The notes below the pieces were generated by a model, which saw nothing but the letters and a program-made list of their open reading frames with translations, was not told the DNA's origin and searched no databases. From NCBI GenBank assembly GCA_002387735.1, contig DGKJ01000053.1, positions 4,129-68,128 on the forward strand: a DNA stretch of 64,000 nt, in the 5' to 3' direction. Below, in pieces: positions 6,238 to 50,640 of this stretch; positions within the stretch are counted from its first letter, which is position 1, and each line of letters opens with the position of its first letter. A program made the position numbers and the translations under genes. Source of the DNA: Bacteriovoracaceae bacterium UBA4573. GTDB lineage: Bacteria > Bdellovibrionota > UBA1018 > UBA923.

Positions 6238-7620
6238 ATGAAATCTATAGGTCTTCACTGGTTTCGTCGTGATCTTCGTTTTGATGGCAACCCCGCCTTG
6301 CTTCGTAATATCGAAGAAATGAGGGGCCGGGTATTGTGTGTTTTCTTTTTCGACGCCACATTTTTAAGCCGCCCAGATTTTTCGGTCGGGCGCTTTGCGT
6401 TTTTTATTAAATCTCTTCAATCGCTCAAGGACCAATTAAGAGAACGGGGGGGCGACCTTTTAGTTCTAGACGATGGACCCGATGCGGGGTTCGAGCGCAT
6501 TTTAAATTTGCTCGATAAACACCAATTAAAGCCCGCATTAGTGACTTGGAATCGCGATTACGAACCTTTTGCACGCCTTCGAGATGAGCGTATTGAGCGG
6601 TGGCTTCAAAAACGAGACATCAAAGTACTTACCGAGCGCGATCATTTAATTTGCGAACCACACGAAGTACTTAAAGACGACGGAACACCTTATCGCGTTT
6701 TTACTCCGTACTACCGCAAATGGAAGCAATTTCTCGCGACTTCTGGCGGGCGTGTTAGGTTGGCGGCTCCCACGGCCAAAGACAAAATTAATTTCGAACT
6801 TAGTTGGAAAAGAGTGGATGCGAAAATTCCGGCCCTGGATCGCTGCGATACCTTCGAAAAACAAAATCGCAGGCGATTAAAAATTAACGTTCCTGAAGCG
6901 GGTACGAGCGAGGCTTTTAGGGTTTGGAAAAATTTTGGGCATCGCCTCGATGCCTACAAAGATCTGCGCGATTTTCCGGCGCACGATGCTACTTCCGGTC
7001 TCTCAATTTTCTTCAAAAATGGTTCAATTACCACTGCCCAGGTTCTTTCCAGAACGAATAGACACAGTGCGAGTGCTGAAAAATTTATTTCCGAGGTCGC
7101 ATGGCGAGAATTCTATTACTCTATTCTGTTTAATTTTCCCTATGTTGAAACTGAGAGTTTCAACCCCAAGTATCGGAATATTAAATGGGAAAACGACGAA
7201 AAACTTTTTAAAAAGTGGAAAAGCGGCGAAACAGGGTTTCCGCTGGTGGATGCCGGCATGCGAGAACTCGTGCAAACAGGGCGAATGCACAATCGCGTGC
7301 GCATGGTGGTTGCGAGTTTTTTAGTCAAAGATCTTCATATTGACTGGCGGTGGGGCGAACGCTTTTTTATGGAGCATTTATTAGACGGTGACCTTGCCGC
7401 CAACAACGGAGGCTGGCAGTGGGCGGCGTCGACAGGATGTGATCCTCAGCCCTATTTTCGGATATTTAATCCCCAATCCCAGGCCAAAAAATTTGATCCT
7501 GAAAATTCGTATATCCAAAAGTGGGTGCCGGAGTTCGGCACCAAAAATGAGTTGCGGCCAATTGTGAATCACGCTGAACGGGCGCGGCGTGCGGTTACCT
7601 TGTATCGCAAACTCGGCTAA
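6238..7620 (+). CDS. phr: Deoxyribodipyrimidine photolyase / cryptochrome family
   Basis: 460 aa. The C-terminal FAD-binding signature FFMEHLLDGDLAANNGGWQWAASTGCDPQPYFRIFNPQSQAKKFDP is diagnostic. Confidence 0.85.
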   Translation: MKSIGLHWFRRDLRFDGNPALLRNIEEMRGRVLCVFFFDATFLSRPDFSVGRFAFFIKSLQSLKDQLRERGGDLLVLDDGPDAGFERILNLLDKHQLKPALVTWNRDYEPFARLRDERIERWLQKRDIKVLTERDHLICEPHEVLKDDGTPYRVFTPYYRKWKQFLATSGGRVRLAAPTAKDKINFELSWKRVDAKIPALDRCDTFEKQNRRRLKINVPEAGTSEAFRVWKNFGHRLDAYKDLRDFPAHDATSGLSIFFKNGSITTAQVLSRTNRHSASAEKFISEVAWREFYYSILFNFPYVETESFNPKYRNIKWENDEKLFKKWKSGETGFPLVDAGMRELVQTGRMHNRVRMVVASFLVKDLHIDWRWGERFFMEHLLDGDLAANNGGWQWAASTGCDPQPYFRIFNPQSQAKKFDPENSYIQKWVPEFGTKNELRPIVNHAERARRAVTLYRKLG

Positions 7621-7664
7621 AAATGCCGATTTTGAAATCGTGAGTTGTTTCGTGCGAAAATAAC

Positions 7665-8756
7665 GTGATGGGTCTGCGATCAAAAATTTGTATCCTTGGC
7701 TTGCTCGTAGTTTTCTCGAGTGCTGCGGCGTATGCCGACGAAAAGAGATCGAATTTTTCGAAAATCGATAAAAATTCTACGTTGGGGTGGCTGAAGTACC
7801 CGACCGAACCCTCGCCCGAACGCCGAGGGGAAAAAAAGAATGAAGTGATTCGAAAATACCAACTGCCGCCCAAAACGAAAAACAATGTCTACAAGGCAAT
7901 GCTACCAGCCTTCTATCAAGACCTTGATTTTGACGCTTACTACCGATTTACTTTTGAGGACCTTGTTTGGGCGACTTTGGCGATTGAAGGTGAGACCGAT
8001 TGCGATGGGCGAGAACATTCAGCCGCGGTGTTGTGGACCATCGCGCAGCGAGGCGGAATTAATCCAAAACGCCGATTGAGTAACGATAAAAGTTACGCGG
8101 ACGCCTTGATAGAGTACTGTCAGCCAATTAAGCCGAAATGGGCCAATCCCAAAAAAGTCTGTGCCGGTAAAAATAAGGATGAAGTCGTGTGTGATCCAAA
8201 AGTTATTGCACGGCGAAAAAAGGGAATAAAGTTGGGCAAGGCTATTTTAAAGGCAGGCTCCTTTGACCTCGAAGCTAAAGAGCTGCAAACACAACTGCGC
8301 CGCCACGGATTGACGAAAGCGGATTTTAAATCGTTTATAAGACCGCAATGTCTTCAGATCGCTTACGATTTCGTAACCGGAAATCTTCCGAATCCGGTTC
8401 CGGGCGCTACCGAATTCGCGCAGCACTGCAAGCAGGGTAAACAACACGATTTTTTAGTTAAATTTCAACGTAAAGACAAAGTGATTCATTCAAAAAGTAG
8501 GCGCAGGTGTCCGTCGAAGAAGTCGAAGAAAAAAGGGGGAAATCTCTTTTTTACCGACGAAGTATTGTTGGGGAAAACTCGCTATTCGACAAAAAACTGG
8601 GACGGTTCTGAAATAAAAATTATTAGCCCGTCGGGGAGTGAATCGCGGGTCGCCTCGAGAATTCAAGAGACCGACGAACCCAAACGAGTCGCCGAAGTCA
8701 TACCAGTCTCAAACGAAAATAGAAAAGACCGGGACGCCAGCATGGGAGTGAATTGA
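7665..8756 (+). CDS. Hypothetical exported protein with a basic C-terminal tail
   Basis: 363 aa with an N-terminal signal peptide (LGLLVVFSSAAAYA). The C-terminus is Lys/Arg-rich. No confident family assignment. GTG at 7665 or ATG at 7668 could be the start. Confidence 0.4.
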   Translation: MMGLRSKICILGLLVVFSSAAAYADEKRSNFSKIDKNSTLGWLKYPTEPSPERRGEKKNEVIRKYQLPPKTKNNVYKAMLPAFYQDLDFDAYYRFTFEDLVWATLAIEGETDCDGREHSAAVLWTIAQRGGINPKRRLSNDKSYADALIEYCQPIKPKWANPKKVCAGKNKDEVVCDPKVIARRKKGIKLGKAILKAGSFDLEAKELQTQLRRHGLTKADFKSFIRPQCLQIAYDFVTGNLPNPVPGATEFAQHCKQGKQHDFLVKFQRKDKVIHSKSRRRCPSKKSKKKGGNLFFTDEVLLGKTRYSTKNWDGSEIKIISPSGSESRVASRIQETDEPKRVAEVIPVSNENRKDRDASMGVN

Positions 8757-21105: not shown

Positions 21106-21183
21106 TGGGGTGATCGAGGGGTCTCGAACCCCCGACCTTCGGGACCACAACCCGACGCTCTAACCAACTGAGCTACGACCACC
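21106..21183 (-). tRNA. tRNA-His (anticodon GTG) with genomically encoded G-1 and 3' CCA
   Basis: Folded manually from the reverse complement GGTGGTCGTAGCTCAGTTGGTTAGAGCGTCGGGTTGTGGTCCCGAAGGTCGGGGGTTCGAGACCCCTCGATCACCCCA. The 7-bp acceptor stem is preceded by the extra G-1:C73 pair typical of tRNA-His. D-stem GCTC/GAGC, anticodon stem TCGGG/CCCGA with loop TTGTGGT, and T-loop TTCGAGA are all present. Confidence 0.9.
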
Positions 21184-46933: not shown

Positions 46934-47638
46934 TTACTCAGCAGCTTCGTTTGCTAACAAATCGCCAAGCGTCGCGTAGCGTTCATTCGGATTTTGGGAC
47001 GCAATCCAAAGACTGCGGTCAGGGAGATTGGGCTCGAGGATGCGAAAGGCTTCGTTCAATTTCGCAATGAAACTATCCCCATTTGGAATAAAAACATAGT
47101 TAGGATGGGCGCCCCAACCGCGAGCAATGAGCTGATCAAGCTGCGCAGCTTCCGAGGCTGATTCGGTACGAATTTCGGTACGCGTGTACCCTCTGCCTTC
47201 TTCCGCGGATTGCAAGTGTAGCACCAAACTGTAGCGCGAGTATTCGTGTTCGACGGTGGTTCCCATTTCGGCCACGAACGACTCGGCGGTGCCCGGCCAG
47301 TAGGCTGCCCCGTCCATTGAGCCGCGATCACAAAAGAGCGAAACTTTTGTTTCGCAAACTCCATGGGTGGTCGCGCAATGAGCGATCGCTTTGGCTTCGA
47401 GTTCCCGTTGAAGGCTAAAAATAGCACGCTGGGTGTGGACCCGGTCGGCATCGGTGTCTGGGCGCATAAAACCCCCTCGAAGCAACATGCTGGCTGCTTC
47501 GGGCGCAATGGCCACGCGGTCGCCGTACTGTTTTTGTAAAAGGTCTAAAAGCGTTGTTTTTCCAGCGCTTGGACCACCAGTGATCACAATCCGTTTTAAA
47601 CCGCTCACGAAAAACACCGCCTTATTTAGAAAAGCCAA
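46934..47638 (-). CDS. AAA_28/NadR-like P-loop ATPase (putative small-molecule kinase)
   Basis: Walker A ITGGPSAGKTTLLDLL is present at the N-terminus, with a compact ~230-aa size typical of the AAA_28 family. Confidence 0.5.
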   Translation of the reverse strand: MAFLNKAVFFVSGLKRIVITGGPSAGKTTLLDLLQKQYGDRVAIAPEAASMLLRGGFMRPDTDADRVHTQRAIFSLQRELEAKAIAHCATTHGVCETKVSLFCDRGSMDGAAYWPGTAESFVAEMGTTVEHEYSRYSLVLHLQSAEEGRGYTRTEIRTESASEAAQLDQLIARGWGAHPNYVFIPNGDSFIAKLNEAFRILEPNLPDRSLWIASQNPNERYATLGDLLANEAAE

Positions 47639-47715: not shown

Positions 47716-49914
47716 ATGGGTCTATTGAGGCGCTTTATCTTCATTGCTGGATTCGCAGTTGCGAGTACCCTCGGGCAAGCGAGCGAGGTGGGTTGCGATA
47801 TCTACCTAATCCTTTCAGAACTAACCATAAAAGTGGAAGAAGGGGCGGGGTTCCGAGTAGTTGGGCGGACCGCCGATGGTAAACACGGAACCCTAATTGT
47901 TGAGTTGGGCGCCGATAAAAAACGAAAATTCTTCAAAACCACCAGCTCTGAAAACCAAGAAATCGTAGCGGCACTTTTTGGGGACGGGCACGGGGAAGGG
48001 GCCATGGCGGACCGAGAGTTTGCGAGCAGTCGGCTTTTCGCCCATGTTGGATGGGAGGGCTCAACCCGAGTACGGCGCGCGGAATTAAAAATGCGCGACG
48101 GACGGGTCGAAAAGGGCGTCTTGGTCGACGAAGTACCGGGTGAATCGCTCGCAACCATTCAAAAACGTGATCGTGGTGCCTACAATAAAATTCTACGATC
48201 ACCCGAATACAAACAGGCTGCAGAAGAAGCCACTCTGATTCAGTTTGTAACAGGAAATATAGATTGGATCTCTTATCGGGAAGGACAGGGCATCGATTTG
48301 CTCTCCGAGAACGTAATGGTCTTCGAAGACCCCGTGACCAAACGCTATTCGATACGATTTATCGACAATGGCGCCTCTTTTACAAAAACTCAGGCTGTTG
48401 ATGCAGCGGCTACTCCCCGCGAAGGTCTTTCCCTAGGTGAGCGCTTGAAGCGGCTACAATTGCTCCACGTACAGTTTGAAAAAAAATTGCCTCAAGTGTT
48501 TTATCCACTGCTTGACCTCGAAGACATGAGTAGTACGACTCAGAAATTGCTTATAAAATTAGCGGAGTTTTCAGACGAAGAATTAACCCAGCTCTTGGCT
48601 AAAAGTCCGACCTTAAATGATAACGATATCAACGGCGCGATTGCTCGGATTCGATATCTCGAAGAGCGTTTCATCGAGCGGCGGCCCGAAATTCAGATGG
48701 CTCGCAACGATTATCCGCCGGATATCAACGTTCGCGACAATGACGACATCACCAGCGGGCGGGCGCAGCGAGAAGCGACTGTCGATCTCGAGCTCGAAAC
48801 ACCGATTGTCGGAGAAAGTCCGGCCAAGGGTCGTCTTCCCGTAAAAAGTGATTTTACCGACGATCCATCTGTGCGCATCGTGGGCGAAGTTGCTCGCGTT
48901 CAGAAAAAAAACAAGAACGTGGTCTACAAGGTTGAAATCGATGGTCAGACTCATTACTTCAAACCCAAATCTGGGGAGAATCCACTAATCGGCGAGAGTT
49001 TCTTAGGAAAGTTCGAAAAAGGTATGATGGCCGATCGCGAGGTTTTTGCGTCGTTGGTATACCAAAAGGCCGGTTGGAGCGAGGTCCCCAGAGTAAAGAA
49101 AGTTAAAATCAAAGTAGACGGTGAACTCGAAGAAGGTGCTCTAGTCCAAGGGTTGCCTGGCAAAACCATTCGCGAGTTCGGAACCAAAAGGTTTGATGAA
49201 ATGATCGAAGGTCAGGCGGACTATCGACGTTCGCGCGAGCGGGCGCTGATCCTGTCTGTTGTTACCGGTAATGAAGACTGGTACCGAATTAAATCCAATC
49301 GAAACGCACATGAAAATGCCGGCAATCTCTTGTTGGAGGTCGACCCCGAAGACCCGCTTCTATATAACTATTACTGGATCGACAGTGGGCTTTCGTTTCC
49401 CCGTCGTAGTCGGCGCAGCAATACCCGCTTGCCTGGTGCGCAGTCTTCCCAGTATTTGGCCGAACAGTTCGGACACCTGTGGCCGCTGTTGCTTGATCTC
49501 GATACGCTCGACTCCGGAACAATCGATTTGATCAAAGAACTCTCCAAGGTGAGTTTCGTAGAGTGGCGCGAATTAGCGAAAGAACTGCCGACCATTACCC
49601 AAACCGATATCGAAGGAATGATGATTCGGGTGAACTATTTGAATCGACGATTTGTTCTAAACGACCCCGAATTTCAAGTGACCCAGCCAATGCGCGAGGC
49701 TTGGCATAAGAAACGAGTATCGAAGCGAATACTTCCGGGGCGTACCGTTAAGGCCGATTCCGACGATACGACCTTAACTCCTACCCAACGGCGAACAGAT
49801 ACCCACCAAGTGGACACCTCCGAGTCCACTCAGTCAGCGTTCGATAACGAACCTACTAAGGCGGGGCCACGACCGGGGGATAACGACGGAACGCCGGATC
49901 ATAGGGCCCGATAG
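47716..49914 (+). CDS. Exported protein with two tandem protein-kinase-like (PKL) domains; the second may be a pseudokinase
   Basis: Signal peptide MGLLRRFIFIAGFAVASTLGQA. Internal duplication spans residues ~47-327 and ~387-655 (nt 47854-48696 and 48874-49680). Repeat 1 has Lys (FFK), Glu (MADRE), catalytic-loop-like DLLSEN (nt 48295-48312) and DFG-like IDNG. Repeat 2 has YFK, MADRE, HENAGN (D replaced by H) and IDSG. Confidence 0.5.
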   Translation: MGLLRRFIFIAGFAVASTLGQASEVGCDIYLILSELTIKVEEGAGFRVVGRTADGKHGTLIVELGADKKRKFFKTTSSENQEIVAALFGDGHGEGAMADREFASSRLFAHVGWEGSTRVRRAELKMRDGRVEKGVLVDEVPGESLATIQKRDRGAYNKILRSPEYKQAAEEATLIQFVTGNIDWISYREGQGIDLLSENVMVFEDPVTKRYSIRFIDNGASFTKTQAVDAAATPREGLSLGERLKRLQLLHVQFEKKLPQVFYPLLDLEDMSSTTQKLLIKLAEFSDEELTQLLAKSPTLNDNDINGAIARIRYLEERFIERRPEIQMARNDYPPDINVRDNDDITSGRAQREATVDLELETPIVGESPAKGRLPVKSDFTDDPSVRIVGEVARVQKKNKNVVYKVEIDGQTHYFKPKSGENPLIGESFLGKFEKGMMADREVFASLVYQKAGWSEVPRVKKVKIKVDGELEEGALVQGLPGKTIREFGTKRFDEMIEGQADYRRSRERALILSVVTGNEDWYRIKSNRNAHENAGNLLLEVDPEDPLLYNYYWIDSGLSFPRRSRRSNTRLPGAQSSQYLAEQFGHLWPLLLDLDTLDSGTIDLIKELSKVSFVEWRELAKELPTITQTDIEGMMIRVNYLNRRFVLNDPEFQVTQPMREAWHKKRVSKRILPGRTVKADSDDTTLTPTQRRTDTHQVDTSESTQSAFDNEPTKAGPRPGDNDGTPDHRAR

Positions 49915-50025
49915 TAACCAGGTTGAGTGATTCAAAAACAATTGCGCCGAGTCAAAGTGCCCTTGCGATCGGTTCGCGACCACGATATAGCGGGCCTTTA
50001 CGGCGATGCTATTAGGAGCGAAACG

Positions 50026-50640
50026 ATGAAAACTCTCACTGAGTTCGATGGATTTACTTTAAAACGCGGTCTTCAGAAGTTGGCCGAACTGGAAAAAGAA
50101 GGAAAAACTGCGGAAGAGATTCCAGCGTTGATCACGGAAAGTTTTAAATACGAAGGTGATAAACTTAAGTTTTTTCAAGTAGCTCTTGAAATGGCAAAGG
50201 CTCGCGGTTTTGACGGCGAGAGTTCTCGAGTAAAACGCGTGGTTGTAATGACGCTTCTTGAAACCGAAAAGGCGCCACAGGGTTCTGAAAAACGCGAAGA
50301 GCAGACCTACGTACTGGAACTTTTCCCGGCTCCACCACAAGAACGAAAAAAAGGTCGCGGTCGGTTTGACGGTGATCGCAAAGGTGGTCGTGGCAAAGGA
50401 AAAGGTGGTCGTGGTGGCAAGCGTGGGGAGCGCGGTGGTCGCGGTGGTGACCGTTCAGAGCGCCGAGCCCAAAATAAAGATGGTCGCCCTCCAAGACAAC
50501 CCCGACCTCAGACTCCAAGCAAGCCGCTTGTGATTCCAAAACCTAGAGCACTACCGACGGATGCACCGGCTGCATCGACGAGCGAGTCTGCAGTTTCCAC
50601 TGCAGCCAGTTCCGAGTCTTCTGGCTCAAGCGCCAGCTGA
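50026..50640 (+). CDS. RGG/Gly-Arg-rich low-complexity protein (possible nucleic-acid-binding)
   Basis: A globular N-terminal ~110 aa is followed by KKGRGRFDGDRKGGRGKGKGGRGGKRGERGGRGGDRSERR and a Ser/Ala/Pro-rich tail. ATG 50026 with AGGAG RBS is preferred over track start 49927. Confidence 0.45.
   Translation: MKTLTEFDGFTLKRGLQKLAELEKEGKTAEEIPALITESFKYEGDKLKFFQVALEMAKARGFDGESSRVKRVVVMTLLETEKAPQGSEKREEQTYVLELFPAPPQERKKGRGRFDGDRKGGRGKGKGGRGGKRGERGGRGGDRSERRAQNKDGRPPRQPRPQTPSKPLVIPKPRALPTDAPAASTSESAVSTAASSESSGSSAS
50340..50480 (+). repeat. Degenerate GGT-GGT-CGT-GG(C) short tandem repeats encoding the RGG tract
   Basis: Reiterated ggtggtcgtgg units are visible in the sequence. Confidence 0.5.

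Follow-up and report, generated by a model that had tools for sequence, protein, structure and literature searches.

The gene described here occupies positions 47716–49914 of the forward strand of a 64-kb window, by which we mean the whole 64,000-nucleotide stretch analysed, from contig DGKJ01000053.1 of Bacteriovoracaceae bacterium UBA4573 (phylum Bdellovibrionota; assembly GCA_002387735.1). The open reading frame is genuine, and its product of 732 amino acids (aa) is identical to P0001, deposited as 'hypothetical protein [Oligoflexia bacterium]' (at NCBI, Oligoflexia is a class made up of Oligoflexales and Silvanigrellales); 19 contigs from several ENA, JGI and NCBI assemblies carry the exact sequence. 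The product contains two homologous domains whose closest solved relative is the type II phosphatidylinositol (PI) 4-kinase (PI4KII), and it is predicted to be exported. The features are as follows, with model confidence given as the predicted local distance difference test (pLDDT).

47716–49914, + strand: whole gene, predicted exported tandem atypical-kinase protein; open reading frame, product P0001, with a syntenic orthologue (P0002) that is 50–51% identical.
47716–47781, + strand: predicted Sec-type signal peptide, aa 1–22, MGLLRRFIFIAGFAVASTLGQA; basic n-region, hydrophobic core and small residues at -3 and -1 (heuristic).
47788–48711, + strand: repeat 1, aa 25–332, PI4KII-like atypical kinase domain, the more divergent copy.
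47794–47796, + strand: Cys27, the sole cysteine of the protein, just past the signal peptide, with equivalents in relatives.
48256–48312, + strand: repeat 1 catalytic loop, N181-I-D183-W...D194-LLSE-N199, with an insertion of about 11 residues modelled as a beta-hairpin.
48706–48831, + strand: inter-repeat linker, about aa 331–372, predicted disordered, with the strongly conserved acidic motif NDYPPDINVRDNDDITSGRAQREA.
48832–49692, + strand: repeat 2, aa 373–659, PI4KII-like atypical kinase domain, the copy nearest the family consensus (block pLDDT mostly 83–95).
49270–49326, + strand: repeat 2 catalytic loop, N519-E-D521-W...H532-ENAG-N537, placed by hhalign to canonical relatives, NxGN signature kept.
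49378–49440, + strand: repeat 2 DFG-like motif and activation-loop start (IDSGLSFPRRSRRSNTRLPGA), strongly basic, D556 aligned with IDNG of PI4KIIalpha.
49693–49911, + strand: C-terminal tail, aa 660–732, polar and charged, mostly predicted disordered (pLDDT <50 for aa 676–732).
50026–50640, + strand: downstream small gene, 204 aa from MKTLTEFDGF, an N-terminal domain with an Arg/Gly-rich tail; syntenic partner.

The two halves of the protein are homologous, with aa 47–330 aligning to aa 387–657 at 29% identity over 293 columns (E=3e-27), in agreement with a sequence-only reading of this DNA that had proposed two repeats. The motifs on which that proposal was built (FFK/YFK, MADRE, VTGN(I/E)DW, IDNG/IDSG, and a C-terminal helical module) are all present and aligned across the repeats, and the repeat alignment likewise bears out its pairing of D194 (in DLLSEN) with H532 (in HENAGN). 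An AlphaFold2 model of repeat 1 built with a 13-row alignment has a pLDDT of 85.4 and a predicted template modelling score (pTM) of 0.86, and in a full-length model (pLDDT 72.8, pTM 0.48) both repeats are confident and have the same order of secondary-structure elements, which agree at 82.6% of aligned positions as against 35% in a circular-shift control. Given the low full-length pTM, the model predicts no packing of one domain against the other. Each repeat is predicted to form a bilobal kinase fold, with an N-lobe of beta-sheet and helix and a C-lobe bearing the catalytic and activation loops. A Foldseek search with the repeat 1 model returned 4hne_B (E=1.2e-6, TM 0.55), and the top matches are kinases throughout: the lipid kinases PI4KII and MavQ, the protein kinases CtkA, Fam20C, actin-fragmin kinase, HipA and CotH, and the glycan kinase Fam20B. 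These are the same structural neighbours as those listed for PI4KIIalpha in its structure paper (PMC3974213). Because they span lipid, protein and glycan kinases, the class of substrate cannot be deduced from them. The kinase proposal of the sequence-only reading therefore stands as regards the fold, although the branch is that of the PI4KII-like atypical kinases and not of the eukaryotic protein kinases.

The relationship to PI4KII emerged only with a family profile. Searches of the PDB with the single protein sequence gave no match, two-sequence profiles, one for each repeat type, gave noise only, and only a 13-sequence family profile got to PI4K2A and PI4K2B, which are its best PDB matches (E=0.0024–0.0033) and align collinearly over FKPKxEE, NTDR--GNDNWLI and IDNGLAFP. 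Pfam gave no kinase match, even at E up to 10, whether the query was the complete protein or one of its halves; PF00454 was absent from all three at E<=10, with nothing reaching its formal family threshold of 27.1 bits, and the hallmarks of eukaryotic-type protein kinases (GxGxxG, VAIK, HRDLKxxN, DFG and APE, or a match to the PF00069 or PF07714 HMM) were not found. The sole match in a curated library is to TIGR03843 of NCBIfam (SCO1664 family, uncharacterised actinobacterial proteins; E=5e-6, 26 bits) at aa 397–460 in the repeat 2 N-lobe, which covers about 60 residues and falls far below the family cut-off of 172.4 bits. PADLOC gave no defence-system match.

To collect relatives, a profile of the four repeat copies from both tandem orthologues was run with HMMER, exhaustively, against 1.84 billion representative proteins, and only ten related clusters came out at E<=1e-3. 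These are the tandem P0002, the single-domain P0003–P0008, P0010 and P0011, and the 4086-aa giant P0009, nearly all of them unnamed singletons out of raw-read assemblies. Word-index searching was ineffective for this family, returning only P0001 and P0002 with the protein as query and only P0007 with the family alignment, and scans of genome contigs and of metagenome contigs returned no relatives. The family is thus very sparsely sampled, and a literature search found no description of the clade. What we regard as new is this uncurated and very rare clade, with its insertion in the catalytic loop and, in one lineage, its tandem duplication; no curated family covers the 732-aa protein.

Among the distant members, P0006 matches the four-copy profile at E=2.9e-12 and scores 31.4 bits on PF00454, above its gathering threshold of 27.1, and P0009 and P0010 match PF00454 just under threshold. 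The catalytic loop of these more distant members is that of a canonical PI3/PI4-kinase; in P0006 it is GNHDRHSNN...IDHG (reading GNHDRHSNNYLI...IDHG). In P0008 (858 aa; L011 8001–10577, contig JADMIO010826333 of GCA_016307145.1, an assembly of very many contigs) the kinase-like domain is accompanied by an extended N-terminal region and, at the C-terminus, by a weak match of the HigB/RelE type (E=1.5e-3), and in P0009 the domain is embedded in an Ala/Pro/Gly-rich protein; both suggest reuse of the domain in larger proteins with several domains and a toxin-like or effector-like character.

All 13 domain copies of the family alignment, both repeats included, share ten invariant residues. For repeat 1 and repeat 2 respectively, these are K74/K416, E79/E421, G95/G436, R100/R441, G129/G469, N181/N519, D183/D521, N199/N537, D217/D556 and R311/R638. 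The beta3 Lys (K74/K416) aligns with FKPK of PI4K2A, as expected of an ATP-binding Lys, and the DFG-equivalent Asp (D217/D556) aligns with its IDNG, in an IDxG context. The sequence-only reading had made both assignments, and these agree with K152 of PI4KIIalpha, whose replacement (K152A) abolishes activity, and with the IDNG that opens its activation loop (residues 344–364; the catalytic loop comprises residues 308–315; PMC3974213).

The same reading had also taken DLLSEN in repeat 1 for the catalytic loop and concluded that repeat 2 had lost the catalytic Asp, and here the alignments point elsewhere. In the family alignment and in the alignment to PI4KIIalpha the catalytic Asp falls in TGNxDW. 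Aligning the insertion-bearing with the canonical clade by hhalign (99.7% probability, E=7.5e-26, 237 columns) places TGNEDW on IGNHDR, followed by a 9-residue gap, AGNLLL on (S)NNYLI, and WIDSGLSF on AIDHGMSF, with D521 falling on the Asp of the canonical DRH. Since all three agree, D183 in repeat 1 and D521 in repeat 2 are the predicted counterparts of the catalytic-loop Asp. D521 is present in repeat 2, and H532 is not a conserved catalytic position. D194 sits in a lineage-specific insertion of about 11 residues. It is peculiar to repeat 1, and the family does not conserve it, no other member having an acidic residue there (K, Q, L, T, G or V). The spacing from the catalytic-loop Asp to the metal-binding Asn is graded across the family, at 5 in P0006 (DRHSNN), 7 in P0008–P0011, 15–16 in P0003, P0004 and both repeats, and 19 in P0005 and P0007. 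In the full-length model the strands of the inserted hairpin are at aa 185–188 and 192–195 (161–164 and 168–171 in the numbering of the repeat 1 fragment). There is a methodological lesson here, in that matching of a D-x4-N motif in the style of eukaryotic protein kinases led to the wrong Asp and cast repeat 2, and not repeat 1, as the copy that looks 'degenerate'.

The single-domain relatives all align to repeat 2, which is 37–39% identical to P0003 and P0004 and 25–28% identical to repeat 1, while repeat 1 is only 25–30% identical to every other family member. Repeat 2 is also the better conserved in the orthologue P0002, at 59% identity compared with 50% for repeat 1, and it keeps the NxGN signature before the metal-binding Asn, where repeat 1 has LLSEN or, in the orthologue, IAAEN. 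Repeat 2 retains all ten invariant residues, among them K416, D521, N537 and D556, which are conserved in both the orthologue and the family, and its description as a pseudokinase accompanying an active repeat 1 is not supported. If either repeat were degenerate, it would be repeat 1; because repeat 1 likewise keeps all ten invariants, both are predicted to be competent. The start of the activation loop differs markedly in charge between the repeats (pI 4.6 in repeat 1, 12 in repeat 2), which hints that the two may have different ligands.

The genes for P0003 and P0004 are directly followed by the same small gene as lies downstream here (about 70% identity), and both are therefore positional orthologues of the 732-aa gene. 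Since repeat 2 is orthologous to these single-domain relatives at the same genomic position, it is the ancestral copy, with repeat 1 the lineage-specific, faster-evolving duplicate. The duplication occurred either in the lineage of the window and P0002, or earlier, in which case the extra copy was later lost. Between the repeats, the linker has a pLDDT <50 across aa 322–377 in the full-length model, but despite this predicted disorder it is the best-conserved stretch between both tandem orthologues; around the motif NDYPPDINVRDNDDITSGRAQREA (48706–48777, aa 331–354) identity is 75% over 28 aa, compared with 50–59% in the domains. One possibility is that the acidic motif works as a short linear motif, for instance one for processing or docking, or as a pseudosubstrate. 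Conservation of the C-terminal tail with P0002 is only patchy.

On a heuristic reading the N-terminus, MGLLRRFIFIAGFAVASTLGQA and then SEVGC after the predicted cleavage, is built like a Sec signal peptide, with basic, hydrophobic and small residues in turn: MGLLRR, 13 hydrophobic residues (Kyte-Doolittle maximum 2.18), then G-Q-A before the cleavage and S after it. A hydrophobic segment also opens P0002, P0003, P0004, P0005, P0007 and P0008, and the export proposed by the sequence-only reading is plausible on this pattern and its recurrence. A Tat signal is unlikely, as the RR is not kept in P0002 (KR-L-H). With a signal peptide, the enzyme would be expected to act outside its own cytoplasm.

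A lone cysteine occupies the place of Cys27 in P0002 (C28), P0005 (C38), P0006 (C15) and P0007 (C26), and in these, as in P0001, the mature protein has no other Cys; equivalents are also present in P0004 (C31) and P0003 (C35). Cys27 begins an N-terminal helix and lies outside any lipobox. A role as a lipoprotein site was rejected, as neither E-V-G-C nor its equivalents in the relatives match a lipobox; disulfide dimerisation or acylation are possible roles.

The surroundings of the gene are those of an ordinary chromosome, with genes for an M49 peptidase, EamA, cytochrome c, YdjM, an MFS protein and, in divergent orientation, an AAA_28 protein; after the kinase-like gene come the small Arg/Gly-rich protein and then an acyl-CoA dehydrogenase. 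No signature of a secretion system or a mobile element was seen there. Gene order is the same at the P0002 locus, where the neighbours are 52–87% identical to those of the window, compared with 50% for the kinase-like gene, which is therefore among the faster-evolving genes there. The AAA_28 gene (PF13521, a P-loop protein; 46934–47638, - strand) is separated from the kinase-like gene by a 77-nt intergenic region, is syntenic in the orthologous locus at 78% identity, and has a weak PADLOC match to VakA (E=5e-4). A promoter and terminator scan gave nothing above shuffle expectation. About 18 kb upstream is a gene for a PrkA-type serine protein kinase (PF08298 and PF06798; 27456–29648, - strand), which belongs to another fold family, and the only Rfam match in the 64-kb window is one tRNA gene (21109–21182, - strand, 63.8 bits). 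At the P0005 locus (L013, 8001–8966), a SelO gene (PF02696, an atypical kinase-fold AMPylase; 6247–7812, - strand) is the divergent neighbour, which may be coincidence.

The small downstream protein, MKT(L/I)TEFDGFTLKRGLQK..., has a domain of about 115 aa followed by an Arg/Gly-rich tail and has no Pfam match. Its start is most likely at 50026, the mechanical open reading frame start at 49927 (GTG) being probably too far upstream. The small gene is directly 3' of the kinase-like gene in the window and in L001 (8188–8760), L002 (~1227–1862, where the two overlap by 17 nt) and L003 (~1384–1725), with 65–80% identity, and its family is itself rare (eight matches). We considered a functional two-gene module and rejected it, since more distant homologues of the small gene adjoin unrelated genes, and shared synteny is the simpler explanation. 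The other family members have no common genomic context.

Several characterised systems share the fold and differ in informative ways. The type II PI 4-kinases (human PI4KIIalpha and PI4KIIbeta; PDB 4PLA, 4HND, 4WTV) are 14–21% identical to the 732-aa protein, and attach to membranes through a Cys-rich CCPCC palmitoylation insertion and an RK-rich insertion (PMC3974213). Alignment to PI4K2A revealed no equivalent of either insertion, and the 732-aa protein has the single Cys27 in place of CCPCC; it also has DW and the insertion of about 11 residues where PI4KII has DRGNDN, and it is bacterial, with a signal peptide, a tandem duplication and a different C-terminal helical module. CtkA of Helicobacter pylori (JHP0940; PDB 3AKJ, 3AKK) is a single-domain Ser/Thr/Tyr protein kinase linked to type IV secretion and only 8–10% identical, and no CtkA chain was listed when the family profile was compared with PDB chain sequences at E up to 10. 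Fam20 proteins (the Golgi casein kinase Fam20C and the xylosylkinase Fam20B) and actin-fragmin kinase are eukaryotic and disulfide-rich with other catalytic-loop motifs, and pairing in Fam20 is between separate polypeptides, of which Fam20A has truly lost catalytic features, unlike repeat 2. Bacterial phosphoinositide-kinase effectors such as Legionella MavQ (PDB 7M7A; PF00454) differ in that the 732-aa protein has no PF00454 match, carries a Sec signal, and lacks a type IV or type VI secretion context or anything pointing to a eukaryotic host. Similarity to HipA toxin kinases is lower than to PI4KII; HipA is cytoplasmic and not exported, and we found no HipA Pfam match, no HipB or HipS partner, and no toxin-antitoxin context among the neighbours (AAA_28, RG-rich protein, acyl-CoA dehydrogenase).

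Taken together, we favour as the probable explanation that the gene encodes a Sec-exported tandem of two atypical kinase domains, from the PI3/PI4-kinase-like branch of the protein-kinase-like superfamily, both predicted to be competent. In such an enzyme K74 and K416 would hold the ATP phosphates, N199 and N537 together with the IDxG Asp (D217 and D556) would bind Mg2+, and D183 and D521 would serve as counterparts of the catalytic-loop Asp of DRHxxN kinases, with the hairpin between Asp and Asn probably reshaping the substrate pocket. The disordered, conserved acidic linker would join the two phosphotransferase domains without a fixed packing between them. Since little ATP is available outside the cytoplasm, it is most economical to suppose that the enzyme would act inside another cell; the likeliest substrate would then be a membrane lipid, through the hydroxyl of its headgroup, or else a protein, in a host or prey cell where ATP is available. 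The analysis shows the fold, the homology, the conserved residues and the history of the duplication; catalysis, export, substrate and target are inferred. Several observations weigh against this explanation. The Asp-to-Asn spacing of both repeats is 16 positions as against the canonical 5, with 15 residues between the two and the Asp-x4-Asn pattern broken, and both have Trp where DR(H) has its Arg (and His). Confidence in each domain model is lowest at the inserted hairpin (block pLDDT 60–77), and D183, D521 and D194 are placed relative to the ATP site by aligning sequences and profiles and not from measured geometry. The signal peptide is an assignment by eye and not by a trained predictor, the scarcity of extracytoplasmic ATP would limit an exported kinase, no secretion-system or host-interaction genes flank the gene, and the tandem orthologues available for testing conservation number only two.

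A further point against the favoured explanation is that D194 keeps the exact canonical x4 spacing to N199, as in HRDxxxxN and DRHxxN, and is conserved in the orthologue (IDIAAEN), such that a relocated catalytic Asp in repeat 1 is conceivable. Carried further, repeat 1 would be the sole active kinase with D194 as catalytic base, and repeat 2, which has H or R at this position in both orthologues, a pseudokinase regulating or scaffolding it. We consider this improbable: D194 is within an insertion missing from the canonical relatives, the position five before the Asn is never acidic elsewhere in the family, TGNxDW aligns with NTDR of PI4KIIalpha and GNHDR of P0006, and repeat 2 is the better conserved copy, with all ten invariants and orthology to the single-domain relatives. 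The reverse asymmetry, in which repeat 2 is the working ancestral kinase and repeat 1 a regulatory, substrate-binding or differently specific module, is doubtful but has rather more to recommend it. The loss of NxGN from repeat 1, its 25–30% identity to other members, its lower conservation between orthologues (50% vs 59%), and its acidic activation-loop start where that of repeat 2 is strongly basic, suggesting different ligands, would all fit. However, repeat 1 still has K74, D183, N199 and D217 and indeed all ten invariant positions, its model is a confident and complete kinase domain, and 50% identity between orthologues across the whole domain indicates purifying selection.

It is also conceivable that the kinase fold has been turned to a different reaction, such as AMPylation or glutamylation (compare SelO and SidJ), or to mere binding of a nucleotide or other ligand. 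Non-kinase chemistry by enzymes of this fold is documented, for example for SidJ (PMC6858067), and the unusual catalytic loop, with DW in place of DR(H) and the 11-residue insertion, would be in keeping with it, as would an extracytoplasmic location where ATP is limiting. Against this, the Lys/Asp/Asn/Asp phosphotransfer set is invariant in the family, including in members with a fully canonical DRHxxN loop, and the nearest structural neighbours are all bona fide kinases; we give this explanation little chance. A bolder extension of the favoured explanation, which we offer tentatively, is that the protein is the founding tandem member of an undescribed, very rare bacterial family of Sec-exported PI4KII-like kinases marked by the catalytic-loop hairpin and the lone N-terminal Cys. 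It would act as a two-headed effector of uncultured Oligoflexia, with sites differently tuned through their acidic and basic activation loops, phosphorylating lipids or proteins of a eukaryotic host or bacterial prey.

Kinase export is rare among bacteria, and the kinases in question usually serve as effectors, rewiring the membranes or signalling of another cell; the type II PI 4-kinase-like fold, for its part, is otherwise a eukaryotic hallmark. Here, a bacterium of the Bdellovibrionota phylum carries a PI4KII-like fold together with a predicted signal peptide, an apparently re-engineered catalytic loop, and a lineage-specific tandem duplication. If active, the protein would represent a new branch on the atypical-kinase tree, and would provide a handle on how uncultured Oligoflexia interact with their hosts or prey.

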